Shown piece after piece: positions 46,239 through 61,931 of a stretch of DNA of 64,000 nucleotides (positions are counted from its first letter, which is position 1; each line of letters starts with the position of its first letter). The notes under the pieces were generated by a model, which worked only from the letters and a program-made list of their open reading frames with translations, had not been told where the DNA came from and ran no database searches. This DNA is from a virus, in the IMG/VR virus record IMGVR_UViG_3300035704_000001, positions 86,823 through 150,822 of that record; one strand, given 5' to 3'. The translations under genes were made by a program, and so were the position numbers.

Positions 46239-46417
46239 TCCAGGTGGCCCGTGACATCAGCGGCCGGGAGCCGGTCAGCAGGGACGAGGCCATCGCCCGG
46301 CTGCGCAGCCGGGCGGCGGAGTGGAGCACGACCGACTGCGAGGAGATCTGCTCGCACGAGATCGGGGACACGATCCATGAGTTCCTGGTCGTGCTGGGCC
46401 TGGAGGCGCAGGACTGA
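46235..46417 (+). CDS. small hypothetical protein
   Basis: coupled to both neighbours (GTGA, TGATG). Confidence 0.4.
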   Translation: MIQVARDISGREPVSRDEAIARLRSRAAEWSTTDCEEICSHEIGDTIHEFLVVLGLEAQD

Positions 46418-49400
46418 TGGGCTTCACCTTCGCCGAGCCGTTCCCGGGCGTCACCGGCACGCTGACCGTGGCCCCGGGCACCCCGCCAGGCCCGGGCGGC
46501 TCCGGCGGGGCAGCCAGCCCGGCGCCCGGGGTGGGCTGGGAGATCTACGTCCGGTCCTGGCGGGACTACACCACGCTGCTGGCCATCATCCCGTACAAGA
46601 CCTGGACCGGCTTCCAGTTCGCCAAGCAGCTCAACGACATCGGCTCCGGCACGGTCACGCTCAACGCCGACGACCCGTTCTGGTCCACCCCCACCGCCGA
46701 CGGCTCGGCCGCCTTCGAGCTGCTGGACTACGAGTGCCTGTGGCAGTTCTACCAGGACGGCGTGTGCCGGATGGAGTTCCTGGGCGAGACCATCACCGAG
46801 CAGCTGGTAGACCCGTCCGAGCAGCGGATCATCACCGTCACCGGGCCCGGCTCGATCGCCACCCTGAAATGGGGCATGGCCGCGCCGCAGGGCTTCCCGA
46901 ACATCGTCCTGAAGCTCGACTCGATCATCGACCCGTTCGACGAGGTCGACATCAACGGCAACCCGGTGCTCGACACCAACGTCTGGGACATCGTGAGCCC
47001 GGCCGGGTGCGCCTTCCCCACGCCGATCGCAACCATCTACAACTACCCGGCCGGGGCCGGCTACCCGCTGTCCGAGCTGTACCCGTCGGGCACGCTGACC
47101 GTCAACGCCACCGCAGGCACCTCGGTGTGCGCGACCACCCCCTACGACGCCACGGACACCCTGGTCTCCGCGCAGGTGACCCCGGTCGGCGCCTCGGGCA
47201 CCCAGACGGACAGCAACGGCAACGCGGTCAGGTACGGCACGAACCTGAACGGCTCGGAGCTGACCCAGTTCTACATCCAGAGCCTGAAGGACCCCAGCAA
47301 GTACGTGATGTTCGGCCTGTCCTCCGGTCAGTTCTACTGCCAGGCCGTGACCACCTCGGGCACCTTCACCAAGGTGCTGCCGGCCTACGACAGCAGCAGC
47401 CACTCCTACTGGATGATCACCGAGCAGGGCGGCTCGGGCGGCGGCAACGGGACGTACTACTTCTGGACCTCGGCCGATGGCCAGAACTGGGTCCAGCAGT
47501 GGACCGTCGTGCACGACTGGGACGCCACCTACTGCGGCTTCTACCTGGCCGCCACGTACTCGATCACCGGCCAGTCGATGACCATCACCGACCTCAACTC
47601 GATGGTCACCACCCCCAGCTACCAGGGCAACCTGTACCTGGGCGAGCCGATGATGGGCATCTGGTACGACCTGCTGCTGGCCTGCCAGGCCCGCGGCACC
47701 ATCCCGTTCGTGACCACCGCGACGGGCCCGGCGCTGGACAGTTTCGGACGTTCGTGGGCAGACATCCAGAACGTGCAGGTCACCAACGGCACCGACCTCT
47801 ACACGCTGCTGCAGAACGCGTGCGCCGCGGTCAACGCCGACTACTGCATGCAGCCGGGCTTCCTGCTCCAGGTCGGGCTGACCGAGCAGGGCGCCATCAG
47901 CCTGGGCACCGACCGGTCCAGCCAGATCGTCCTGCGCGAGGGCCGCGACTTCCTGACCAAGACCCGGGTCCGCTCGCGCAGCTCCCTGCAGAACATGATC
48001 GGCGCGGAGAACACCGACGGCCACGAGATCTCCGCCTCCAACTCGTCCTCGTTCACCCAGTGGGGCCAGCGCGAGGGCTGGTTCCAGACCTCCGCCCAGG
48101 TGGACCCGCAGTCGCTGGCCATCGCGGCCGCGGCCGCCGTCGCTGACACCGCCCTGGAGGTGCTGAGCTATACCGGCACCGTCCCGCCGAACACCCCCGG
48201 CAAGACCGTCTTCCAGAGCTACGACGTCGGCGACTGGCTGGGCATGGAGCGGCCGGACTTCTCCGCGACCGACGCGGTGCGGGTGGTGGCCATCGCCGTC
48301 TCGGTGGACTCCACCGGGCTGGAGTCCGACGAGCTGACCTTCGAGAGCTACGTGCAGTGGCTGGAGGCGCAGCTGCTGTACGTGGCCAACAAGCTAGGCG
48401 GCCAGTTCGTCAACATCCCGGGCACCTCGCCGGTGGCGCCGTCCAAGTACGGGACGGGGCAGGTCCCGACCTGGTTCACTCCCGCCCAGACGCTGGCCGG
48501 GCTGGCTGACGTGGTGGGCTCGGGGGCCTCGCACGCCGCGCCGCTGGTCTACAACCCGGCGACCGGGCAGTGGCAGGCCGGCGGGTCCACCGACCCGGTA
48601 ACCGGCAACGCGATGGGCATCTCGCTGCTGGGCGCGGCCATCGCCCCGGACGGCGGCGGCACCCCGGTGGCGGCCGCGTCCTCGGTCAACGTGATCCCCG
48701 GCCAGGGCGTGACCGTGACCAACTCCGCCACCGGCGCTACCGTCAGCACCGGGGTGCAGTCCGACGGCACCACCACCACGGTGGTGGCCGGCGCGCCGCC
48801 GCCCGCCGCTCCCGACGCGCCCACCGTGGTGGGCGGGCCCGGCACCGTCTCGGTCGGCTGGGACGGCCTGCTCGGGGGAGCGGGCCCGCTGAGCGACTTC
48901 GCCTTCGTCCAGGTGCACGTCTCGACCACCACGGGGTTCACCCCGTCCACGGCCACCCTGCAGGGCACCATCCACCTGGGCGGCGGGGTCTACACCGTGT
49001 CCCGGCTGACGGCGGGCACGACCTACTTCGCCAAGCTGGTGGCAGTCAACCAGGCTGGCGCGACCAGCACCGCCAGCACCCAGAACTCCGCGGTGCCGAT
49101 CACCACCGGCACCACCGCCACCATCAGCGCGACAGCGCCGGTCTCCCCGCGCACGAACGACCTGTGGTTCGACAGCTCCAACGGGATGGAGCTGAAGGAG
49201 TGGAACGGCACGGCCTGGGTGCCGTTCCAGTACGGCACCAACGCCATCTCGGCCGGGGCCATCACCGCGGCGCAGATCGCGGCGAACACCATCACCGCGG
49301 CGCAGATCGCCTCCGGCACCATCACCGCCACCCAGATCTCCGCGGCCACCATCACGGCCGGCCAGCTGGCCGCCGGCATCGTCTACGCCGGCATCGTCAA

Positions 49401-50217
49401 CGGCACCACCGTGATGGGCGCCACCGTGGTGGCCGACGGCACCAGCGGCGAGATCCTGGTCTACTCGGGTACCCCGGCCAGCGGCAACCTCATCGGCTCC
49501 TGGTCCGGGTCGGCCGGCACGGACGGCCAGGGCAACCCGTATCCCCTGGGCCTCATGGCGCAGGCGCTGGTCATGCCCAACCAGTCCTCCCCGCCGGCCG
49601 CGGTGTCCGGGGCGTCCTCGCTGTACTCCTCGGTAGCCGGGCGCCTGTTCTACCTGTCGTCGGCCGGGGTCACCGCCGCGCTGGAGCGGTCCCAGGTCAA
49701 CGTCGCCTCGTTCACTGCCGGCAACGTCACCTCGCCGGCGGTCATCAGCGCCCCGCTGGCCTACCTGGCGAACGAGGGCGCGCAGTCGTCCGAGTTCGAG
49801 ATCGAGATCGACGGCCTGGTGACCACGGCCAACACCGGGCAGTCCACCCAGACGCTGACGTTCCAGCTGGACGTGGATGCCTCGGTGCTCGGCGGGCAGT
49901 TCACCGTCGGCGCGGTATTCCTGCCGGTGGGAGGCAAGACCTTCTCCTACACCATCCGGTTCCGGCTGGCCATCCAGACCACCGGCGCCTCCGGTACCTG
50001 CTCGATCGCCGCTGACGGCCAGATGGCGGCGTCCGGGGTCAACGCGGGCTCGACCACCACGCCGGTGCCGACCATCGCGGTGGGCGCCCAGTCCGGGCCG
50101 TCCAAGTCGTTCGACTCCACCTCGAACCACACCCTGCAGGTGTACGCCAGCTGGGGCGGCAACTCCACCGGGCAGGCGCTGACTACCGTGCGGACCAAGA
50201 TAGCCCGCCGGATGTGA
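46417..50217 (+). CDS. large minor tail/baseplate hub-fibre protein with Fn3-like domain
   Basis: KQLNDIGSG N-terminus, LTAGTTYFAKLVAVN Fn3-like, ITAAQIA repeats. Confidence 0.8.
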   Translation: MGFTFAEPFPGVTGTLTVAPGTPPGPGGSGGAASPAPGVGWEIYVRSWRDYTTLLAIIPYKTWTGFQFAKQLNDIGSGTVTLNADDPFWSTPTADGSAAFELLDYECLWQFYQDGVCRMEFLGETITEQLVDPSEQRIITVTGPGSIATLKWGMAAPQGFPNIVLKLDSIIDPFDEVDINGNPVLDTNVWDIVSPAGCAFPTPIATIYNYPAGAGYPLSELYPSGTLTVNATAGTSVCATTPYDATDTLVSAQVTPVGASGTQTDSNGNAVRYGTNLNGSELTQFYIQSLKDPSKYVMFGLSSGQFYCQAVTTSGTFTKVLPAYDSSSHSYWMITEQGGSGGGNGTYYFWTSADGQNWVQQWTVVHDWDATYCGFYLAATYSITGQSMTITDLNSMVTTPSYQGNLYLGEPMMGIWYDLLLACQARGTIPFVTTATGPALDSFGRSWADIQNVQVTNGTDLYTLLQNACAAVNADYCMQPGFLLQVGLTEQGAISLGTDRSSQIVLREGRDFLTKTRVRSRSSLQNMIGAENTDGHEISASNSSSFTQWGQREGWFQTSAQVDPQSLAIAAAAAVADTALEVLSYTGTVPPNTPGKTVFQSYDVGDWLGMERPDFSATDAVRVVAIAVSVDSTGLESDELTFESYVQWLEAQLLYVANKLGGQFVNIPGTSPVAPSKYGTGQVPTWFTPAQTLAGLADVVGSGASHAAPLVYNPATGQWQAGGSTDPVTGNAMGISLLGAAIAPDGGGTPVAAASSVNVIPGQGVTVTNSATGATVSTGVQSDGTTTTVVAGAPPPAAPDAPTVVGGPGTVSVGWDGLLGGAGPLSDFAFVQVHVSTTTGFTPSTATLQGTIHLGGGVYTVSRLTAGTTYFAKLVAVNQAGATSTASTQNSAVPITTGTTATISATAPVSPRTNDLWFDSSNGMELKEWNGTAWVPFQYGTNAISAGAITAAQIAANTITAAQIASGTITATQISAATITAGQLAAGIVYAGIVNGTTVMGATVVADGTSGEILVYSGTPASGNLIGSWSGSAGTDGQGNPYPLGLMAQALVMPNQSSPPAAVSGASSLYSSVAGRLFYLSSAGVTAALERSQVNVASFTAGNVTSPAVISAPLAYLANEGAQSSEFEIEIDGLVTTANTGQSTQTLTFQLDVDASVLGGQFTVGAVFLPVGGKTFSYTIRFRLAIQTTGASGTCSIAADGQMAASGVNAGSTTTPVPTIAVGAQSGPSKSFDSTSNHTLQVYASWGGNSTGQALTTVRTKIARRM

Positions 50218-50227
50218 TGGCCCTGGC

Positions 50228-50908
50228 TCAGCCCTGGCCCGGGTCCGCGGGGCCGGGTAAGGCCGGCGCCGGGCCCGGGTCGGAGAGCGCCATCTCCAGC
50301 GACTTGTCCATCGAGTCGAGCGAGTCGGTCACGGTCGCGACCATGGTCCGCAGGTGCACCTCCCACGCCGTGCCCAGGGCCCGGACCACGGTCAGCCGGT
50401 GCTGGGCCTCGGCCGGCGCCCTGGCCAGGATGTCCGCGGCGCGCTGGTGCGCGTCCGCCAGCTGGTCGCGCATCATCGCCTCGGCCTTCTGCCGCGTCTC
50501 CCGGATCAGGGCGTCCGCCTGCAGCCGGGCGGACTCGACGAGCTGGCGCCGCTGGCGCTGCCCGTCCTCCCCGACCTGGCGGGCGAACTCCTGGGCCTCG
50601 CCGACGATCTGCTCACCCTGGGCCTGCGCGTGCTGCAGCACGCGGACCGCCTGCGGGCCGACCTCCGCGGCGCCGGGCGGGGCGGCGTGTGCCCCGTGCG
50701 CCGGGACGGCCGGCGCGAGCCGGGCGGCTTCCTGCAGCTCCTGCACCAGCTCGTCGCGCTCGGTCAGCAGCGTGCGGATCTCCTCCACTGCCGCGCTGCG
50801 CATCTCGTCGACGACCTGAACGTCATACCCGCGCATCACCCGGGGGAGGTCCCACCCGCTGAGCTGTTCAGGAGTCAGTCTCGGGGTGGCCAGCAACCCC
50901 TCTTCCAT
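50228..50908 (-). CDS. DivIVA-domain coiled-coil protein
   Basis: LTPEQL...MRGYDVQVVDEM N-terminus, then long coiled coil (AVRVLQHAQAQGEQIVGEAQEFA). Confidence 0.75.
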   Translation of the reverse strand: MEEGLLATPRLTPEQLSGWDLPRVMRGYDVQVVDEMRSAAVEEIRTLLTERDELVQELQEAARLAPAVPAHGAHAAPPGAAEVGPQAVRVLQHAQAQGEQIVGEAQEFARQVGEDGQRQRRQLVESARLQADALIRETRQKAEAMMRDQLADAHQRAADILARAPAEAQHRLTVVRALGTAWEVHLRTMVATVTDSLDSMDKSLEMALSDPGPAPALPGPADPGQG

Positions 50909-50911
50909 CGG

Positions 50912-52036
50912 TTAACCCTCCCACCCGAAGTCCTCGACGTGAATGCGGGACCCGGGCATTCCTAGCGCCATCAGGCGGCCGGCGGCCGCCTGAACCATCC
51001 GGGACGGACCGCAGATGTAGGCGTCGCGGTCCTCCCAGGGACCGCCTCTCGCCACCACGTCCACGATGTTCCCGCGTTCTCCGTCGTAGTCAGGGGCCTG
51101 CTCTTCCGGGCAGGAGGCTGCGTGCACCACGCTCAGCCAGTCGTTCTCCGCGGCGAGCTTGGCCAGGCGCTCCAGGGCGTACAGCCCGTCCGGCTCGCGG
51201 GCGCCGAAGTACAGGGCGACCCGGGGCGGGCTCTGCCGCTGGCCGAGGCGCTGGCACATGGCCAGCATCGGGGCCAGCCCGGTCGAGCCGGCCACCATCA
51301 CGATGTCCCGGCCCGAGTCCTCGTCCAGGGCCAGCGAGCCGAGCGGCGGGCCGAGCCGCAGCCGGGAGCCGGGAGCCGCCGTCAGCGCCAGCGCGGGGGA
51401 CAGCAGCCCGCCGGCGATGACCTTGACGTGCAGCTCGGTGGCCCGGTCCGGGGAAGACACGGTGGCCGGGGTGTAGAACCGCCAGATCCGCGGGCGGTGC
51501 TCCAGCTGGACCGCCACCGACTGGCCCGGCCGCCAGTTCATCTGCTGGGACAGCCGGACGGTCAGCACGGCGACGTCGAACGAGCGCATCTCCGCGGAGG
51601 TGACCACCGCGTCCCACCACGGCGGGGTCCCGTCCTCGGCGGTCAGCGCCTCGCACATCACCTGCGCGACCAGGGCGTAGGCCGCAGCCCAGGTCCGTGC
51701 CGCCTCCTCCGTCCAGGACTCGCCCGCGAAGTAGGCGAGGGTGGCCAGCAGCGAGGTGCCGACCAGCTTGAAGTGCCCGGGCTGCACCCCGAACTTGCGG
51801 TGGTCCCGGCCCAGCCCGTGCAGGTACTCGGTCAGCCGGGGCAGGTCATCGACGTCGGTCACGATCTGCACGAGGGCAGCCAGCAGGCGGTCCCGCTGCG
51901 GGGCCATCAGCGGCGGGAACATGTCGATTACGTCGTTGCCGCCGGTGGCAAAAAGATGGGCGTAGAAGTAATCCACGATCTCGGGGCCCTGGGGGGCGAC
52001 GGCCGCGAATGTCTCCCTCAGGAGCCTGGTGTCCAC
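50912..52036 (-). CDS. hmp: flavohemoglobin (globin + FAD/NAD reductase)
   Basis: FYAHLF, LGRDHRKFGV proximal His, WRFYT, VAGSTGLAPM, YICGP. Confidence 0.9.
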   Translation of the reverse strand: MDTRLLRETFAAVAPQGPEIVDYFYAHLFATGGNDVIDMFPPLMAPQRDRLLAALVQIVTDVDDLPRLTEYLHGLGRDHRKFGVQPGHFKLVGTSLLATLAYFAGESWTEEAARTWAAAYALVAQVMCEALTAEDGTPPWWDAVVTSAEMRSFDVAVLTVRLSQQMNWRPGQSVAVQLEHRPRIWRFYTPATVSSPDRATELHVKVIAGGLLSPALALTAAPGSRLRLGPPLGSLALDEDSGRDIVMVAGSTGLAPMLAMCQRLGQRQSPPRVALYFGAREPDGLYALERLAKLAAENDWLSVVHAASCPEEQAPDYDGERGNIVDVVARGGPWEDRDAYICGPSRMVQAAAGRLMALGMPGSRIHVEDFGWEG

Positions 52037-52962: not shown

Positions 52963-53202
52963 GTGCACCGGCTGGAGTTCCTGCGCAGCCGCGGCTTCCA
53001 CCTGTGCATGACGATCGCCTGGGCGCTGATGTCCATCCCGACCGCGCTGTGGTGGAACAACTCGGTCCTGTGGGTCGGGGAGATGAGCGTCTACGCCTGC
53101 ATGACTACCCACTGGGGCAGTTACCAGGGCGCGCGGGCCGAGCATACGGCAGGCTCTGGCGGGGACGGAACCGAGGACGGAACGGGGGGGGGGAGAAGCT
53201 GA
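52963..53202 (+). CDS. small membrane protein
   Basis: hydrophobic Trp-rich 79 aa. Confidence 0.5.
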   Translation: MHRLEFLRSRGFHLCMTIAWALMSIPTALWWNNSVLWVGEMSVYACMTTHWGSYQGARAEHTAGSGGDGTEDGTGGGRS

Positions 53203-53428
53203 TGCGCGACACCTGGACCTGACGCCGGGCCCTGGCGGCCGTCCGGGCCCTCCAGGTAACGATCCGGTGAAGTCCCGGAGAGATTGTGCGGGGTTTTCAG
53301 CCTGATCTGACGGGAAAACGGGTGCTGACCTGGGCGGGGGAGATTACGCCGGGGATTTTCAGTCTCACCCTCTCGGGCGTACTAAGTACTGTCCTTCCGC
53401 CCCGGTAATAATTACAAAACCAGCAGCG

Positions 53429-53494: not shown

Positions 53495-54226
53495 CTACGG
53501 CTCCATGTCCGACTCGATGACCCGCCCCTGGCGGACGATGAACTCGCCGTACTCCAGCACGGTGTCCCCCGCCTCCCAGACGTAGGTCTCGGCGAGCACG
53601 CACCCGTCAGCCGGCAGGTCGAGCAGCCGGGCCTCGCGGCCGTCGTCGAGCACCCGCCGCGCCTCGCGCGCCGCCCGGCCCCACACCAGCGGGGTGCCCG
53701 CCCGCCCGGCCACCAGCTGGGCCGCTCCGCCGAACCCGGGCAGCGGCTCCGGCCGCAGCAGCTCGGGCGCCAGGCTGGCGTAGTGCGGCGGTACCCAGGA
53801 CACGGACAGCATGAAGATCCCGGTGGAGTCCCCGGTCACCCACTCGCGCCGGATCACGTGGGAGACCACCGGGCCCAGCCCCAGGATGGGGCGGACGTAG
53901 GCCGGCACCGGGATCAGCTCCGCGGCCCGCACGAAAACGGACTCGCCGGCACTGGCCCGGCGCAGCCGCTGCTGCGGGCCGAGCACGTTGCGGGGCTCCG
54001 CCACGAGGGTGCCGGACCGGTCCCTGCTCTCGGTCAGCCGGGCGGAGGCCAGCAGCGCGTACGCCTGCTGCGCGGCCTGGATCGAGACACCCCAGGACCG
54101 GGCGGTCTCGCGGATGGACGGCAGCTTGTCACCCGGGCGGTAGCCGGGCTCGCCGGCGGCGATCTTCGCGGCGATGTGGTCGTAGATCTGGCGGTGCAGC
54201 GGAGACGATCTCTGGGCCCTGGGCAT
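53495..54226 (-). CDS. GntR/HutC-family repressor with UTRA domain (KorSA/TraR-like)
   Basis: QIYDHI...GDKLPSIRE...WGVS...AY..L...GTLV wHTH; C-terminal UTRA; divergent from transfer genes. Confidence 0.88.
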   Translation of the reverse strand: MPRAQRSSPLHRQIYDHIAAKIAAGEPGYRPGDKLPSIRETARSWGVSIQAAQQAYALLASARLTESRDRSGTLVAEPRNVLGPQQRLRRASAGESVFVRAAELIPVPAYVRPILGLGPVVSHVIRREWVTGDSTGIFMLSVSWVPPHYASLAPELLRPEPLPGFGGAAQLVAGRAGTPLVWGRAAREARRVLDDGREARLLDLPADGCVLAETYVWEAGDTVLEYGEFIVRQGRVIESDMEP

Positions 54227-54312
54227 CTGTCCGGGGCACCCCCTGTCATGAGAACCGTGCAGGTACCTGCCCAGCGTACGACGCAGCAGGATGGCTGCCC
54301 GGGAAGTTGTTG

Positions 54313-54335
54313 TGCATCTGTACGGTTCAGATACA
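54313..54335. promoter_or_regulatory. inverted repeat in divergent gntR/transfer promoter region
   Basis: TGCATCTGTAC-g-GTTCAGATACA. Confidence 0.55.
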
Positions 54336-54406
54336 TACTGAGTGGGAAGACCGGAGATTACCGCGGGATTCCCCGGTAACCGGTGATCTCCCCCAGGAGG
54401 CAGGCA

Positions 54407-54688
54407 GTGATCACAGCACTCGACCCGGGCACATTGCGCGGTGACGTGCTGGTGCCGCTGTCGATGGCCGCCCGCCGGATCGGCCGGACCAGCGAAACGC
54501 TCAAGGCGTGGGCGGACAAGTTCGGCATCCCGGCCGTCAAGGACCCGGGCGGCGACTGGCTCGCCTACCAGTCCTGGGTGGACGCGGTGCTGGCCTCGGC
54601 CCTGCCCGGGCAGGCCGGCTGCATCAGGACCGTCACCGAGCAGTGGTGGCGGACGCGGGGAGTCGTACTGGAAGGAGCAGCGGCGTGA
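54407..54688 (+). CDS. small HTH (excisionase/MerR-like) protein
   Basis: GGAGG SD; LSMAARRIGRTSETLKAWA...IPAVKDPGG.W. Confidence 0.65.
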   Translation: MITALDPGTLRGDVLVPLSMAARRIGRTSETLKAWADKFGIPAVKDPGGDWLAYQSWVDAVLASALPGQAGCIRTVTEQWWRTRGVVLEGAAA

Positions 54689-56112
54689 AGACCGCAGAGC
54701 AGGGCTGGAGCTGGGTCTCCGGCCACCCCACCGCCGCGGCGCTCGCCGCCATGGCGGCGCTGATCGCCGTCTTCATGCTGTACCGCCTCCTCCGCAAGGG
54801 CATCAGCGCCGCGCGGGGCGCGCTGAAGCCGGCGGAGGACGGCTCCGGCAGCGACGCGTTCATCGTGGTGGCCGCCCTGCTCGCCCAGGCCGTGGTGCTG
54901 AACGGCATGTGGGGCTTCGCCGGGCGGGTGCTGCACTTCGCCGGCATCGAGCGGGGATCGCTGTTCGCCTTCCTGGACGTGGCCATCATCGCCTGCGCCG
55001 TCCGGGCCCGCCGGAACATGCGCGAGTTCGAGCATGCCGGCGTGGAGGGCGTGGCGGTGTGGGCGCTGTCCGCGCTGTCCGGCCTGTTCGCGGCCATGGC
55101 CGCCAGCTCGGCCGGGGCGGCGGCCTTCCGGCTGTCCGCCCCGCTGGTCGCGGCCTGGCTGTGGCACCGGGCGATGGAGCTGGAGAAGCAGGAGCGGACC
55201 GGCAGGAAGCTGCACCTGCGGGTGTCGCTGGAGCGGGTGCTGGTCTGGATGCGGCTGGCCGATCCGGAGGAGCGGGAGACCACCGAGGTGGCGGCCTACG
55301 CCCGGCTGGCCCAGCTGGCCCGCCGGGCCAAGCAGCTGCGCGCCCTGCGCGCCGCCGGGGCCAAGACCGGGCGGCAGGCCCGGGCCCTGCGGCGGCTGGA
55401 GGGCGCGCTGAGCGCCGCCGTGGAGCACGCCCAGCTCGCGACCGACCCGGACCGCCAGGACCTCCTGCGCGACCTCATCGGCTCGCTGACGGCCGCCGGG
55501 AGCCTGGCCGAGCTGTCCGTGCCGCCGCCCTGGGACCGCGCGGCCGCCCCCGCGCGCACCACTGCCGAGCTGTTCTCCGACATCGCCCGCACGATAACGC
55601 CGGTCACCGGGACCCCCGACCCGGGGCCCCTGGAGCCGATGCACGAGGACACCGGGACCGCGCCGGGACCGTGGCTGCCGCCCGCCGACGCCGACCCGGG
55701 CCCGTCCGGCCCGGCTGCGCCGGCTGACGGGCTGCGGGTGCCCGCGGAGGTGGACGAGCTGCTGGCCGGCTGGGACGAGCCGCCGCCGGAGGACGACCTG
55801 GACGCGGAGGCGCGCGAGGTGTTCGGCCCGGCCCCGTCCCCCGGGCCGGAGGAGGCCGCCCCGGCGCCCGTCCACCACGAGGACGCGCCCCGCCCGGCCA
55901 CCCGGACGGCCGCCCCGGGGAAGACGGCCCAGCGGGCCCCGTCCGCCAAGTGGACGCCGGAGTCCGCGGGCCTGTCCGAGGACGAGGTGCGCGAGCTGGC
56001 GTCCACCCTGTCCCGCAACAAGCTCGCCGACCGCCTCAGTGTCAGCCGGACCGCCGCGGACCGGATCAGGAACGAGTACGGGCAGCCGCTCGCGCTCAAC
56101 GGAAGCAGGTAA
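54685..56112 (+). CDS. Spd-like multi-TM membrane protein with Pro-rich linker and C-terminal HTH
   Basis: about five TM segments, basic helix, SRNKLADRLSVSRTAADRI; directly upstream of TraB-like gene. Confidence 0.65.
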   Translation: MKTAEQGWSWVSGHPTAAALAAMAALIAVFMLYRLLRKGISAARGALKPAEDGSGSDAFIVVAALLAQAVVLNGMWGFAGRVLHFAGIERGSLFAFLDVAIIACAVRARRNMREFEHAGVEGVAVWALSALSGLFAAMAASSAGAAAFRLSAPLVAAWLWHRAMELEKQERTGRKLHLRVSLERVLVWMRLADPEERETTEVAAYARLAQLARRAKQLRALRAAGAKTGRQARALRRLEGALSAAVEHAQLATDPDRQDLLRDLIGSLTAAGSLAELSVPPPWDRAAAPARTTAELFSDIARTITPVTGTPDPGPLEPMHEDTGTAPGPWLPPADADPGPSGPAAPADGLRVPAEVDELLAGWDEPPPEDDLDAEAREVFGPAPSPGPEEAAPAPVHHEDAPRPATRTAAPGKTAQRAPSAKWTPESAGLSEDEVRELASTLSRNKLADRLSVSRTAADRIRNEYGQPLALNGSR

Positions 56113-56115
56113 GCC

Positions 56116-58179
56116 ATGGCCTCGCGGATGAAGACCTCCCAGGGCACCGTCACCGTCAGGGCGCAGCGCTCGGACGCGTTCTCCGAGGCCGGCGTCAAGG
56201 TGATGCACGCCGCGCTGCCCTGGTTCGCCTGGCTGGCGCTGTCAGCCGCCGGGTCCGCGCTGCGGCTCGGCCTGTGGATCGGTGCCCGCGGGGCCCTGCT
56301 GTGGGCCGGCCTGCTGTTCGCGCTGGTCGGGCTGGTCGTGGCCGTCTTCGACTATCACCTGCGCAAGCACCGGGCCGCCTGGCAGGGCCGCTGGATCGGC
56401 CCGGTCACCGCGCTGGCGTGCGGGCTGTTCACCTGCCTGTACCTGATCCTGGGGCCGCTGGACCTGGTGCTGGACCTGGCGTGGCTCGCGACCGGCATCA
56501 TCGGCTGCCTGGCGTGGGACGGCTGGGCTATCCACGGCGACCAGCGCGACCTCGCGGCCACCTTCAACGCGGGTTCCGCCGCGGCCGGCGTGGGCGGCGC
56601 GAAGATGGCGGTCATCTCCCGCACCCCGGTGGGCGAGGACGACGAGGACGGGTACCCGGTGCCGGGCCCGCGCGTCCCCCGGGGCAGGTCCCGTCCCCCG
56701 CGCGGCGCGCGGGCCCGGACGGGCTCCCGCCGCGAGGTGGTCGAGGCGGGCATCCAGCTCCCGGCCGACCCGGCCATGACGGCGGACGAGGTGGGGGAGC
56801 GGCTGGGCCACATCGAGGTGGTCACCCAGTCCCGTCCTGGCTCGATCGTGCTCACCTCGTCCCCGGACGCGGCCGGGCTGGCGAGCGTCCGGATCACCGA
56901 CCCCGACCTGCTGACCGCCGCGCCCGTCCCGTGGCCGGGCCCGTACGCTCCCGGCGCGGACATGAGCGTGCCGTTCCGGCTGGCCCGGCTGCAGACCGGC
57001 GCCCCGTTCCTGCTGCCGCGGCTGCCCGTGTTCCACATGCGGGTCACCGGGGCTACCGGCATGGCCAAGACGATGGGGCTGTGCTGGAACGTCGCGGCCG
57101 AGGGGATCACCCGCGAGGGCTATTCGATGGTGGCGGCGGACGTGGTGAAAGGCGAGCAGTTCCTTGGCGCCCTGCGCCCGGCCCTGCACCAGCTGGCCAC
57201 CACCCCTGAGCAGGTCAACCTCCTGTTCCACCGGCTGCACCGGGCCCGGCTGGACCGGTGCAACTTCCTCGGTGCCAACCACATCACCGAGTGGTACCCG
57301 GGCTGCGGGCTGACGTTCATGGACGTGTGGCTGGAGGAGGCGGCCGGGGTGCTGAAGCTGCTGGCCACCAACCGCAACGACATCAAGGACGGCATCTTCC
57401 CGCTGGCGGACTGGGTGGAGGACACCAACGCGTCCCGGTCGGCGGGCATGAGCTGGTGGAACTCCTTCCAGAAGCCGTCCAAGGACCAGATCCTGTCCAC
57501 CGTGGCCCGCGGCCAGATGGGCCACGTGTGCTTCGGCGTCAAGGAGAAGGACGACGCCCGGATGGGCCTGTCCGAGCTGCAGCGCGAGCGCGGCTGCCGT
57601 CCCGAGCTGTGGACGGGCCCGCAGCATAAGGCGATGGCGTTCATGGACGCGGAGACGCTGGACGAGCAGACCAAGGTCACCCCGATGCGGTTCTACAACT
57701 GGGGGCCGGGCAGCGGGCGGATCGGCGCCTACTGCGCCGAGTACCAGGCCCGGGACCGGCCGTGGGACGACGTGACCGGCGAGGCCATGACCTGGACCCC
57801 GGCCATCAGCCCGTCCGCCTCGTTCCCGCAGGCCGGCGGCTACGGGACGCACGATAACGGCGGGCCGAAGGGCAAGGAGGCCTCCGCCAAGCTCCGCTCC
57901 CAGGCCGAGGCCGAGGAGCGGCTGCGGAAGCTGATCCTGCGGTGGACGCAGCAGGGGATGGTGCACTTCGAGCTGCGCGACCTGCAGCTGCAGGAGTCCT
58001 ACATCGGCAAGGGCCGCACCTGGTTCTACTCCGCGCTCCCGAAGATGGAAGGGGAGCAGAACCCGCTGGTCGCGCTGGTGTCCGAGGACCCCCGCAAGAA
58101 GTGGGCCATCATCGCCAACCTGCCGGAGAACCGCCAGGCCCGGCAGGACGAGCCGCAGGACGACGGGGAGGCGGTCTAG
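56116..58179 (+). CDS. traB: TraB-like FtsK/SpoIIIE conjugative DNA translocase
   Basis: N-terminal TM helices, HMRVTGATGMAKT Walker A variant, DVVKGEQ, VWLEEAA Walker B, RSAGMS..SFQKPS, CFGV, C-terminal wHTH (GRTWFY). Confidence 0.75.
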   Translation: MASRMKTSQGTVTVRAQRSDAFSEAGVKVMHAALPWFAWLALSAAGSALRLGLWIGARGALLWAGLLFALVGLVVAVFDYHLRKHRAAWQGRWIGPVTALACGLFTCLYLILGPLDLVLDLAWLATGIIGCLAWDGWAIHGDQRDLAATFNAGSAAAGVGGAKMAVISRTPVGEDDEDGYPVPGPRVPRGRSRPPRGARARTGSRREVVEAGIQLPADPAMTADEVGERLGHIEVVTQSRPGSIVLTSSPDAAGLASVRITDPDLLTAAPVPWPGPYAPGADMSVPFRLARLQTGAPFLLPRLPVFHMRVTGATGMAKTMGLCWNVAAEGITREGYSMVAADVVKGEQFLGALRPALHQLATTPEQVNLLFHRLHRARLDRCNFLGANHITEWYPGCGLTFMDVWLEEAAGVLKLLATNRNDIKDGIFPLADWVEDTNASRSAGMSWWNSFQKPSKDQILSTVARGQMGHVCFGVKEKDDARMGLSELQRERGCRPELWTGPQHKAMAFMDAETLDEQTKVTPMRFYNWGPGSGRIGAYCAEYQARDRPWDDVTGEAMTWTPAISPSASFPQAGGYGTHDNGGPKGKEASAKLRSQAEAEERLRKLILRWTQQGMVHFELRDLQLQESYIGKGRTWFYSALPKMEGEQNPLVALVSEDPRKKWAIIANLPENRQARQDEPQDDGEAV

Positions 58180-58362
58180 GTGATCCGCGTGCTCATGGTC
58201 ATCACCGGGGCTGTCGTCCTCGTCGTGCTGGGGGCAGCCGTCATCGCCGACCCGCACCTGCAGTGGCAGCTGATCGCCCAGCTGGACCACCAGGCGCGAA
58301 GCCACGGCAGCCAGCTGGACAGCCGCCTGGCCCGGCTCGTACGCCCCCGGAGCACCCCGTGA
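58180..58362 (+). CDS. small membrane protein
   Basis: N-terminal hydrophobic helix. Confidence 0.5.
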   Translation: MIRVLMVITGAVVLVVLGAAVIADPHLQWQLIAQLDHQARSHGSQLDSRLARLVRPRSTP

Positions 58363-58370
58363 CAGTAAAT

Positions 58371-58495
58371 AGATATCTAGATATCTCATTTATGACAGCG
58401 GCCCAGCCAGCCGGAATGCCGTCCCGAGGCGCCCGCGGGCACCGGTCCGCCCCCCGGGCAGGGGTACTCCCCGGATACGGGATATCTAGATATCT
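58371..58495. repeat. two copies of palindrome (A/G)GATATCTAGATATCT
   Basis: 58371-58386 and 58480-58495, AT-rich in a GC-rich background. Confidence 0.8.
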
Positions 58496-58791
58496 CGTTT
58501 GTCAGCAGGGCTCAGGCGGCTCCGGAGGGGCACAGGGCCGCAGCGGGGGACTGCCAGCAGATTGCGGGGAGATTACCCAGGGAGGGATGACGGGACAACA
58601 GGCAGCTCCGGGGTCCGTAAAGCGAAGCGAAGAACCCAGACAGACACGGACACGCCTGAAATGCCCTCCAGCGGGCCCCCAGATGCCCGCTACGGGCCCC
58701 GGAAACCCGCAGCGGCCTGCGCGTATGCACCCGGCGGGAGGCCCCCGGATAGCCGCAGAAAGCCGCGCAGGGGCAGGCCACAGCCCTAAGC

Positions 58792-58824
58792 CACTTGACA
58801 CGCGTCAGGTGCTCGCGGTAGACT
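58792..58824 (+). promoter_or_regulatory. sigma70-type promoter with palindromic operator copy 3 (leaderless)
   Basis: TTGACA-18-TAGACT-6-ATG; CACTTGAC-acgc-GTCAGGTG. Confidence 0.75.
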
Positions 58825-58830
58825 GTACCC

Positions 58831-59097
58831 ATGATGACCAGCCGGAACGCCCGCCTTGCCCTCGCCGTTGCCTTCACCCTGGCCGCCGTCCTGGTGCCGG
58901 GCGCGCACCTGGCCGTCCTCCTGGCCCGGCTGGCCTTCACCTCCGCCTCGGTGGCGCTGACCTGGCCGTGGCGGCGCTGCGGGCAGTGCCGGGCGCTGGT
59001 CATCCGCCGGTACCGGATCGAGTGGGAGGACGGCTCCTGCACGCGCCTGTGCGTGACCTGCGGCGCGCCGTACGCGGAGCTGATCGAGTGCCCGTAA
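58831..59097 (+). CDS. small membrane protein with CxxC pairs
   Basis: hydrophobic N-half, CGQC...CVTC. Confidence 0.55.
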   Translation: MMTSRNARLALAVAFTLAAVLVPGAHLAVLLARLAFTSASVALTWPWRRCGQCRALVIRRYRIEWEDGSCTRLCVTCGAPYAELIECP

Positions 59098-59233
59098 CCG
59101 GAGGGTCGCTCCCGGGACACCCCGGGAGCGGTCACGCTGCGTATAGAAATCATGATCATTCTTTCACTTTCCCCCGGGGGCTATCCTCACCGGAGCGTAA
59201 TCACCCCAGGTCGCTGCTAAACGGAGGGTCCCG

Positions 59234-59479
59234 ATGATCCGGTTTCTCGCCCTGGCGGCCGCCGCCCTCGTGCTCGTGCTCGCCTGCGCGGGCTGCACCC
59301 GGACCGTCACCGTCACCGGCAAGTACCGCAGCATCGTCGGCTGGTACTTCGTCTGCGATGGCACCGGCAGCCTCTTCGGCCGCCACCTGGACCCGTGCCG
59401 CAAGGGCCACGTCTGGCGGGTCAGCCCCGCGCAGTACGCCCGGGCCGTCGTCGGCCGCACCTACACCGTCACCCTCTAG
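59234..59479 (+). CDS. putative lipoprotein
   Basis: GGAGG SD, signal peptide with CAGC lipobox-like site. Confidence 0.55.
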   Translation: MIRFLALAAAALVLVLACAGCTRTVTVTGKYRSIVGWYFVCDGTGSLFGRHLDPCRKGHVWRVSPAQYARAVVGRTYTVTL

Positions 59480-59488
59480 GAGGCACCG

Positions 59489-59692
59489 ATGATCCGCCTC
59501 ATCCTCGCCGCGCTGTTCCCGCTGGGCATCTGGGCGCACGCCCACCCGCGGCCCGCCATCCTCGCCGGCGCCGCCGTCCTCCTCCTGGCCGTCGCCCTGG
59601 TCAAGGCGCTGCGGGACTTCGGGCCGCCGCTGGCCGTCGCCTCCTGGGGGTCCCCGGTGCCGCGGCGCTGCCCGTCCTGCGGGCAGGCCTGA
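59489..59692 (+). CDS. small membrane protein
   Basis: GGAGG SD, two hydrophobic stretches, CPSC. Confidence 0.5.
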   Translation: MIRLILAALFPLGIWAHAHPRPAILAGAAVLLLAVALVKALRDFGPPLAVASWGSPVPRRCPSCGQA

Positions 59693-61103: not shown

Positions 61104-61931
61104 GTGACCAGGGAACCGGGCCCGCGGCAGCGGCAGGTGCTGGACTGGGTGACCGGGCACCCCGGCCGGACCGAGCCCCAGATCGCCAGCGCGGTCGGCT
61201 CCGCGTGCGTGTGGCAGCTGCTGCGGACCCTGGAGCACCGCGGCCTGGTGGCCGCCGACGTCCGCGACAGCCCGCAGCACGCCCGGACCGGCGGCACCGT
61301 GAAGACCTGGCGGCCGGCCCCGGCGGGCACGAAGCCCCGTCCCGGGCCCGTCCCGCGGACCGGGAACCGCGCCACCCGGCGCGAGGCGGACCGGCTGGCC
61401 CAGGCCCGGCGCCGCCTGCGGGACCGCGCGGACGCGCCGTCCGCCCCGCAGCTGGCCCGGCAGCGGCTGGTCGACGAGGTCACCGCCCGGCCCGGCCAGA
61501 GCCCGGCGCAGCTGCGGGACGCGCTGGGCCTGAAGCAGCGCCCCGTGGCGGTGCTGGAGCGGCTGGAGTCGCACGGCGCGCTGACCCGCAGGCCGGACCC
61601 GGCGCGGCCCGGGGGCTGGACCTGGTACCCGCCGGAGCCCGCCGCGCCCCCGCCTCCCCGGACCCCGGTCCGCGTGCTGGCCGGCCCGCCGTGCACGGGC
61701 GAGAACCCGGAGATCTTCTTCCCGCTGTTCCTGGCCGGCCCGGAGGTGGACAAGGCCAGGGCGGTCTGCGCCCCCTGCCCGGAGCGCAGGGCCTGCCTGG
61801 CCGGGGCGCTGACCCGCGCCGAGCCGCACGGCATCTGGGGCGGCGAGGTGTTCGAGAAAGGCCAGGTCATCGCCGGCCGGAAGCTGCGCGAGCGGATGAT
61901 CTCCCCCGGGCCCGGGCTGGCCGCGGGCTGA
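61104..61931 (+). CDS. whiB: WhiB-family regulator with two N-terminal wHTH-like repeats
   Basis: CTGENPEIFFP...AVCAPCPERRAC...GIWGG (4 Cys + G-turn). Confidence 0.85.
   Translation: MTREPGPRQRQVLDWVTGHPGRTEPQIASAVGSACVWQLLRTLEHRGLVAADVRDSPQHARTGGTVKTWRPAPAGTKPRPGPVPRTGNRATRREADRLAQARRRLRDRADAPSAPQLARQRLVDEVTARPGQSPAQLRDALGLKQRPVAVLERLESHGALTRRPDPARPGGWTWYPPEPAAPPPPRTPVRVLAGPPCTGENPEIFFPLFLAGPEVDKARAVCAPCPERRACLAGALTRAEPHGIWGGEVFEKGQVIAGRKLRERMISPGPGLAAG

Follow-up and report, generated by a model that had tools for sequence, protein, structure and literature searches.

The DNA analysed here, hereafter the window, is a stretch of 64,000 nucleotides that forms the last 64 kb of the 150,822-bp IMG/VR virus record IMGVR_UViG_3300035704_000001. 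At positions 53495 to 58362 it carries a module in which the gene for a GntR-family repressor diverges from an operon that encodes a TraB-type ATPase. TraB-type transfer of double-stranded DNA (dsDNA) is known from plasmids, from integrative and conjugative elements of actinomycetes (AICEs) and from one plasmid-phage. The ATPase described here belongs to the TraB branch of the FtsK superfamily, with its catalytic motifs intact, and the genome around it is a complete tailed-phage genome, not a chimera. Moreover, the module is not a recent insert: it is ancestral, and has been inherited vertically, in a clade of ~146-151-kb, tRNA-rich, siphovirus-like phages. Since this would be a conserved DNA pump of the plasmid type in a phage, the phage may be able to spread its genome without virus particles. 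In our judgement the evidence is evenly poised as to whether such a TraR/TraB-type dsDNA module might move the replicating phage genome between compartments or hyphae during infection, with its timing set by the repressor.

The features of the module are as follows (window coordinates; HTH, helix-turn-helix; TM, transmembrane).

53495-54226, minus strand: GntR-family repressor (TraR/KorSA-like), 243 aa; Pfam GntR, E 3.7e-11
54227-54406: divergent control region, aligned across four phages
54407-54688, plus strand: small HTH protein, 93 aa; stop and following start overlap by 4 nt
54685-56112, plus strand: 4-TM protein with a C-terminal HTH-like motif, 475 aa; ends 3 nt before traB
56116-58179, plus strand: TraB-type translocase, 687 aa
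58180-58362, plus strand: single-pass membrane protein, 60 aa; its start codon abuts the TraB stop
58363-58830: non-coding gap of 468 bp, ending in a strong promoter

The original prediction, which was made from the letters of the window, had described a GntR gene divergent from an operon for a small HTH protein, a multi-TM protein, an FtsK-like ATPase and a small TM protein, and all five genes were found where it had placed them. Because their starts and stops overlap or abut, the four plus-strand genes fit a single operon. The DNA is 70% G+C, so third-position GC was used for choosing among overlapping frames. High third-position GC backs the four operon genes, and the GntR frame lies below the GC3 filter.

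The TraB-type ATPase and its accompanying proteins

The motor of the ATPase, and only the motor (residues 209-555), matches the NCBIfam model plasmid_TraB (NF041214) with E 5.4e-44 and 150.7 bits. Across this region the protein is 29% identical to TraB of pSN22 (E 2e-25) and 34-35% identical to proteins of Nonomuraea and Thermobispora plasmids (E 1e-41 to 1e-47). The Pfam FtsK_SpoIIIE model gave no match even at E 10, and a sequence search of the PDB returned weak HerA and FtsK matches only. An AlphaFold2 model built on an alignment of 26 sequences, with a predicted local distance difference test (pLDDT) score of 82.8, divides the protein into N-terminal membrane helices (~14-144, four long helices), an FtsK-like motor (~205-560) and a winged helix (~590-677); hydropathy likewise places hydrophobic segments at 53-125, as would be looked for in a membrane anchor. 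When the model was compared with known structures by Foldseek, the FtsK motor came first (6t8g, 2iut and 2ius; E 1e-11, ~400 columns), followed by TcpA, which is a conjugation coupling protein, and EccC. The C-terminal domain modelled alone (pLDDT 85.4) has the topology H-b-H-H-b-b, and its best Foldseek matches are nearly all winged-helix DNA binders (PaaX, LmrR, HlyU and F-112), with weak E-values of 0.05-0.5. The model therefore assigns this domain to the winged-helix fold class, a prediction that concerns the class only and not the specificity.

The Walker A motif reads GATGMAKT, as the original prediction had noted, where the family consensus is GKTGSGKT. The alanine that replaces the second glycine occurs in 8 of the 26 aligned members (this protein and seven others), which fall in several sublineages. 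Lys318 of Walker A, Glu408 and Arg441 are invariant in the 26 sequences, the two glutamates of Walker B are conserved, and the arginine of the RSAG motif is invariant or nearly so. Because the catalytic residues are invariant or nearly so, and because the alanine variant recurs in several sublineages, the alignment points to a functional, constrained enzyme. Two homologs, P0012 (1023 aa) and P0051 (1033 aa), have an insert of ~340 aa at the P-loop; the insert in P0012 matches LAGLIDADG_3, which suggests an intein.

We placed the ATPase in a maximum-likelihood tree of 50 rows, with two chromosomal FtsK proteins as the root. The TraB-like rows all fall into a single clade apart from FtsK, with a support of 100 in the SH-aLRT (Shimodaira-Hasegawa-like approximate likelihood ratio test). 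Within this clade, the TraBs of Streptomyces plasmids and AICE-like elements form one sub-clade (99) and the phage sequences another (99); the gene context of the rows labelled as phage was checked for only a few. The nearest named relatives of the phage ATPase are TraBs of Streptosporangiales plasmids, and the shared group has a support of 89%.

The layout of the module resembles that of traR-traA-traB in pSN22 and pJV1 (and also TraR/TraB/Spd of pSVH1), in which a divergent GntR gene lies opposite an operon whose last gene encodes a membrane-anchored TraB of ~670 aa. The order of domains in TraB of the pSN22-type system (TM helices, FtsK-like motor, winged helix) is also that of the phage protein. 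With this layout, and with an ATPase inside the TraB clade and away from chromosomal FtsK, the proposal of a TraR/TraB-type module has held up. However, the two systems differ in several respects. The carrier is an 11-kb plasmid in the one case and a 150-kb phage in the other, the TraBs of Streptomyces plasmids form a well-supported clade separate from the phage TraB, the upstream genes of the phage are not homologous to TraA, and no spd operon, rep or recognisable clt repeats were found in the phage. The TraBs of Nonomuraea gerenzanensis p1 (48 kb) and of a Thermobispora bispora plasmid (145 kb), while being the nearest named relatives, are located on plasmids, are annotated as hypothetical proteins and are without GntR/HTH/4-TM neighbours like those of the phage. 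The description of the module as of the Streptomyces-plasmid type thus had to be given up, as the nearest named TraBs come from Streptosporangiales plasmids and two further genes point to the same order.

Along its entire length, the repressor can be aligned with pSN22 TraR (27% identity over 232 aa, E 2e-11). It had been called a GntR-UTRA protein; the GntR part of that assignment is sound, and the UTRA match in Pfam is weak (E 0.009). Copies that are 45-61% identical lie at the same position in seven related phage contigs, and GntR genes are also located upstream of TraB in chromosomal loci of Streptomyces and Micromonospora. A terminator-like hairpin is present on the minus strand at 53442-53425, 3' of the gene.

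None of the HTH, 4-TM and 60-aa proteins matched a family in Pfam, NCBIfam or PHROGs. For the 93-aa HTH protein, sub-threshold matches (Pfam MerR_1 at E 0.011, below the cut-off, and a faint HTH_17 match of the ortholog in the relative L003) suggest the MerR/excisionase type. This protein is 40-62% identical in relatives, with 23 invariant columns. A tblastn match of it to the antisense strand of a pSN22 spd gene (E 3.5e-5) was discarded, as such matches are unreliable in high-GC DNA.

Hydropathy shows four hydrophobic helices in the 475-aa protein (18-138), in addition to a coiled region, a linker rich in proline and, at the C-terminus, an HTH-like motif. This motif, TLSRN.LA.RLGVSR..ADRIR, is the sole part common to the four phage orthologs, whose N-terminal parts differ. 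It might seem natural to regard the protein as an Spd protein, since about four TM helices mark it as an integral membrane protein and its gene, which is translationally coupled to the HTH gene, adjoins traB. However, the protein and its three orthologs matched no Pfam family at E 10, DUF2637 included, and a six-frame search of the genome with PF10935 (DUF2637) gave nothing. The presence of SpdB_N (PF27080) in the Pfam copy searched is unconfirmed, so that this negative result covers DUF2637 only. In a comparison of language-model features, the Atlas clusters nearest to the membrane domain carry DUF2637 (0.97 and 0.91) and SpdB_N (0.83), which serves as a lead only. The best named homologs, 37-49% identical, are from Streptosporangium, Actinomadura, Actinoallomurus and Nonomuraea. 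Among them, a 433-aa chromosomal protein of Streptosporangium sandarakinum (L019, 10001-11302) is 48% identical over 250 aa; its gene is stand-alone, between recQ and an NAD kinase gene, with no TraB nearby, and has the same context in two assemblies. Given the lack of a Pfam or DUF2637 match and of similarity to TraA, and given this lone chromosomal homolog, the term 'Spd-like' used in the original prediction describes an analogy, backed by language-model features, and not a family assignment. A predicted complex of TraB residues 1-165 with residues 1-290 of the 4-TM protein scored 0.00, which is evidence neither way.

The 60-aa protein has one TM helix (residues 4-22). Genes for 56-61 aa occupy the same position in the relatives L003 and L005, and the L005 copy is 37.5% identical.

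The operon has a promoter-like -35 element at ~54310-54315 and a -10 element at 54332-54337. The spacer between them contains a near-palindrome (54319-54329; consensus TGAAC-n-GTTCA) that is kept in four phages and is perfect in L005, where it reads GTGAACGGTTCAC. A related half-site, GAACCGT, adjoins the GntR start at 54250-54260. The spacer palindrome is likely an operator, and we infer that it is bound by the GntR protein. In the leader of the operon, at 54354, there is a GAGATTAC motif. GAGATTA(C) occurs in 12 copies on the plus strand and in none on the minus strand (window 53340, 54354 and 58569; genome 41674, 48422, 61444, 63415 and others). Several copies are intergenic and have GGATT behind them; one copy is in the tra leader and another in the gap downstream of the operon. 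The element is possibly a promoter specific to the phage, or an RNA element.

The gap after the operon (58363-58830) contains two perfect 14-bp palindromes, GATATCTAGATATC, at 58372-58385 and 58481-58494. They are 109 bp apart, and lie 10 and 119 bp past the end of the operon. Beyond them come a direct AGATTG/AGATTA repeat (58559-58576) and a strong promoter (58795-58824; TTGACA-18-TAGACT), from which the following block of small genes starts. The original prediction had operator-controlled phage genes on this side of the module. The palindromes are indeed present, but with 300-420 bp between them and the next promoter, which is downstream, there is no overlap. There are only three copies of GATATCTAGATATC in the 150.8-kb genome; the third, at genome position 42093, lies between TTGTGA and TAGAAC hexamers and resembles an operator inside a promoter spacer. 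The equivalent gap in relatives has different repeats and the same promoter. No 7-9-mer reaches at least 4 copies per 300 bp near traB, apart from parts of the twin palindrome, and Rfam models have no match within 50-64 kb of the window. Characterised clt loci vary, being located beside or within the 3' end of tra and containing direct and inverted repeats (PMC3583192). The gap after the operon is the place to look for a cis site, and a role of its repeats as clt or operator is putative.

The carrier phage and the conservation of the module

The two ends of the record (genome positions 1-124 and 150699-150822) overlap by 124 bp, of which 123 are identical and one is a mismatch, although IMG/VR labels the record 'linear'. 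A JGI contig from another sample (L002; 150,829 bp) is the same genome with a different break point, and crosses the end of the window into the start of the genome. Two Logan assemblies have an identical gene order, starting at the tail gene and continuing past TraB. Because of the overlap of the ends, the read-through in the JGI contig and the agreement of four assemblies, chimerism and a junction between host and prophage are excluded as far as the assemblies show.

The portal encoded by the genome shares 50% identity with its counterpart in Microbacterium phage Magritte (133 kb); a major capsid protein and a 2601-aa tape measure protein are encoded as well. Its replication genes are of the phage type (PolA, DnaB-like helicase, beta clamp and clamp loader), 36 tRNA genes form a single array, and nearly all genes are on one strand. 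Six-frame searches of the whole 150.8-kb genome found no tyrosine integrase, large serine recombinase or resolvase (PF00589, PF07508, PF00239), and no ParB or ParA (PF02195 ParB_N; PF13614 AAA_31 and PF01656 CbiA). PF00589 is also absent from four relative phage contigs. The earlier observation that no integrase or Rep flanks the module thus extends to the entire genome. With no recognised integration or partition genes, with replisome genes and with a tRNA array, the phage looks virulent by gene content.

Searches against 50,697 cultured-phage records by blastn and tblastn returned no match to the module, and none to TraB at E 1e-5. Magritte, the closest cultured relative, infects Microbacterium and is without the module. 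There was nothing closer than 30% identity among 185,579 species genomes, and no close copy among 72,556 plasmids. By contrast with these collections, metagenomes contain relatives: 34 TraB relatives were found in a collection of 5.8 billion proteins, all of them metagenomic and several on contigs of 147-150 kb. At least seven phage contigs of 77-151 kb, one of them a doubled assembly of 301.6 kb, have a TraB that is 33-52% identical; the doubled contig, at 301,569 bp, is about twice the unit length.

In the three relatives L003, L004 and L005 (TraB 41-52% identical), a long tail protein comes first, then DivIVA (in L003 and L004), which flavohemoglobin may accompany, small genes, minus-strand GntR, HTH, membrane protein and TraB, followed by a small TM gene (for which two of these relatives have a gene call), a gap and the early promoter. 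The more distant IMG/VR contigs L030-L033 (TraB 33-37% identical), which were found in a scan based on an alignment after a scan of IMG/VR with the single protein gave nothing, keep minus-strand GntR, HTH, a further gene and TraB, again placed after the tail genes. One of these is a genome of 151,377 bp with direct terminal repeats. Genes of the module are better conserved than most of their neighbours. A more remote homolog (P0033), 31% identical, is encoded on a phage-like contig of 123,390 bp (JGI 3300050821), where the 132-aa protein directly upstream matches the Pfam family TraA-like (PF28214).

We also considered whether the module might be an AICE. This identity is contradicted by the absence of PF00589, PF07508 and PF00239, by the lack of a flanking repeat beyond chance and by synteny in diverged phages. 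The longest word common to the flanks, in a search for att-like repeats, has 16 nt, lies inside coding DNA and is near chance, and the flanks share 14 13-mers where 7 were expected and the maximum in shuffles was 13. Accordingly, of the findings that had been named beforehand as speaking against the module, a chimeric assembly was contradicted by four assemblies, no insert bounded by att sites was seen, and the ATPase does not cluster with FtsK.

The taxa of homologs point to Streptosporangiales over Streptomyces for the nearest TraBs, for the homologs of the 4-TM protein and for the flavohemoglobins encoded near the module. The nearest named cellular flavohemoglobins are from metagenome-assembled genomes of Streptosporangiaceae and Trebonia (~50% identical), and the best match among 301 actinobacterial genomes is 47% identical. 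Streptosporangiales have mycelial growth, and the hosts of these phages are probably mycelial actinomycetes of this order.

Possible functions of the module

In plasmid transfer, TraB hexamers form a membrane channel, the winged helix reads a cis site and unprocessed dsDNA is pumped; TraB and Spd proteins together spread plasmid DNA across septal cross-walls (PMC4447253). The same source notes SpdB2 homologues on actinophages, with the suggestion that they could aid the spread of phage DNA. In the mechanism that we propose for the phage, the GntR repressor would hold the operon off by binding the palindrome. On expression of the operon, membrane-anchored TraB hexamers would grip phage dsDNA via their C-terminal winged helices, with possible assistance from the 4-TM/HTH and 60-aa proteins, and the pump would drive this DNA through septal cross-walls or places of hyphal contact. 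From a single adsorption event, replication could thus be started in adjoining compartments with no need for virions, in a manner that would mirror the intramycelial spreading of plasmids by TraB and Spd proteins. A stable plasmid state would be unnecessary for such a pump.

A more far-reaching proposal applies to the entire clade, and we advance it tentatively, leaning somewhat against it. In large, strictly lytic phages of mycelial bacteria, a plasmid-derived TraB pump would be a viral movement system that allows virion-free infection from cell to cell through septal cross-walls, hyphal contacts or sporulation septa, and would be functionally like the movement proteins of plant viruses.

It is important to consider several points that weigh against transfer during infection. 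The functions of the module in transfer, ATP hydrolysis and DNA binding are predicted from sequences and models. The NCBIfam match of the ATPase, at 150.7 bits, does not reach the equivalog cut-off of 800 bits, which suggests that the phage TraB is a distant branch of the family and no equivalog of the TraB of Streptomyces plasmids. A clt-like cluster of 7-9-mers was not found near traB or genome-wide. The twin palindromes differ from characterised clt repeats in being rich in AT and self-complementary, and are not kept in relatives. No homology of the accessory proteins to Spd proteins or to pSN22 TraA could be detected, and for the 4-TM protein the nearest named homolog is encoded on a chromosome, away from any TraB. 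The mycelial nature of the host is suggested by the taxa of homologs, the host itself being uncultured. Finally, the absence of an integrase or ParAB is no proof of a virulent lifestyle.

The original prediction spoke of a phage or phage-plasmid able to spread both as virions and by hyphal conjugation. As a phage-plasmid, the genome would be a plasmid prophage under GntR repression that is conjugated between mycelia by TraB and also forms virions, like pZL12/phiZL12. Virion genes and a working tra locus on one replicon are already known from this Streptomyces plasmid-phage (Zhong et al. 2010, J Bacteriol 192:3747, cited in PMC3583192), and the tra module and TraR-like repressor are of the plasmid type. 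The plasmid pZL12 has ~90 kb and a switch between plasmid and lytic states, whereas the present genome lacks partition and integration genes and looks virulent. No match that could be tied to pZL12 was found in the tblastn search of the 50,697 phage records with TraB or among the plasmid matches listed. The circular assembly of the genome might also seem to favour a plasmid, but a permuted or terminally redundant linear phage genome is expected to assemble as a circle as well. The 150.8-kb genome has no ParA, ParB, tyrosine or serine recombinase or resolvase, its replisome genes, 36 tRNAs and near-single-strand gene layout are as in large virulent phages, Magritte infects Microbacterium without the module, and the 185,579 species genomes and 72,556 plasmids contain no close copy. 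The lack of plasmid, partition and integration genes, together with a replisome of its own and the tRNAs, means that a phage-plasmid is not supported, and we consider it unlikely. Equally small, in our estimation, is the chance that the pump acts at the membrane of the infected cell itself, either in a two-step entry, as in T5, where it would draw in the remainder of the 150-kb genome once a first segment is inside and expressed, or in superinfection exclusion by expelling or blocking incoming DNA. A membrane-anchored dsDNA motor with a DNA-recognition domain would suit such a role, the operon has a host-type promoter and stands at the start of a small, early-looking gene block in the same direction, and three small membrane or lipoprotein-like genes lie directly downstream. 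However, the homologous plasmid systems all act in cell-to-cell transfer, and we know of no member of the TraB family that functions in the entry or exclusion of phage DNA.

SpoIIIE and FtsK move chromosomes through closing sporulation septa, and the phage pump could conceivably load phage DNA into prespore compartments by the same route, so that the phage would persist and disperse in spores of its host. The predicted FtsK/SpoIIIE-like motor with a sequence-reading winged helix, the DivIVA-like and WhiB-like developmental genes in the phage, and a repressor-controlled operon that suits a conditional, development-linked role are all compatible with this idea. Nevertheless, it is purely inferential, no carrier-state genes were identified and, to our knowledge, no spore-loading role of TraB proteins is known; we give it a slender chance. 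That the module is an artefact or a passenger (a chimera, host DNA at the edge of a prophage, a recently inserted AICE or a decaying relic) might be suggested by its location near the right end of a record labelled 'linear' and by a Walker A motif that is off consensus. This explanation is extremely improbable, given that four independent assemblies agree, that the contig closes on itself and that the genome has no att-like repeats, integrase or Rep. Synteny extends down to a TraB identity of 33%, with module genes better conserved than neighbours. None of the frames is broken, the catalytic residues do not vary and the alanine variant is found in several sublineages.

FtsK/SpoIIIE-like proteins have been annotated in the cultured Streptomyces phages Geonosis, Jaresh and AndoPrime, where the proposed roles are in replication or development and not in transfer (PMC11536984, PMC13587820). 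These are also FtsK-superfamily ATPases encoded by phages of mycelial actinomycetes. However, as no cultured-phage record matches TraB at E 1e-5, they represent other branches. In our literature searches, no account of a TraB module in a large phage of the virulent type came up. The present TraB machinery is a conserved core feature of large phages without recognisable plasmid or prophage persistence. If it does act in the spread of the phage genome, phage spread in filamentous bacteria would go beyond the release and adsorption of virions, and our views of how plaques form, of phage defence at the mycelial level and of gene flow among soil actinomycetes would need rethinking. The clade also offers natural variants of the TraB motor (with Gly-to-Ala in the P-loop, or intein-bearing) and of the winged helix for studying how pumps recognise DNA.

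Neighbouring genes

The following features lie to the left of the module.

46417-50217: last tail gene
50228-50908, minus strand: DivIVA-domain protein, 226 aa; Pfam DivIVA, E 1.2e-6, 29 bits against a cut-off of 28
50912-52036, minus strand: flavohemoglobin (globin, FAD-binding and NAD-binding domains), complete gene

The module had been described as contiguous with tail genes. It does lie inside a tailed-phage genome, but ~3.3 kb separate it from the last tail gene, a stretch with the minus-strand DivIVA-like and flavohemoglobin genes, followed by three small genes on the plus strand. The DivIVA gene is at the identical position in L003 and L004, two of the three relatives first examined, and is 29-31% identical there. 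Because DivIVA marks hyphal tips and septa in actinomycetes, a link to the TraB module is conceivable, and the protein is a possible accessory of the module by virtue of its position. The flavohemoglobin is kept in relatives (59-60% identical in L004 and L030), has many homologs (55-98%) on phage-sized contigs, and may be an auxiliary gene for nitric-oxide detoxification.

Closer to the module, a poly-G tract at 53184-53193 has ten G's here, nine in the JGI contig L002 and a third length in one Logan assembly. With nine, a 113-aa open reading frame (52963-53304) is intact, and with ten it is shortened. The difference in length is either a homopolymer sequencing error or phase variation.

On the other side of the module, three small plus-strand genes (58831-59692) come straight after the early promoter. 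They encode 88, 81 and 67 aa with one hydrophobic helix each, the 81-aa product having a lipoprotein-like signal sequence, and they might serve exclusion or spreading. Further downstream, at 61137-61931 on the plus strand, a 264-aa protein has a WhiB domain at its C-terminus only (residues 186-236), preceded by a long N-terminal extension.

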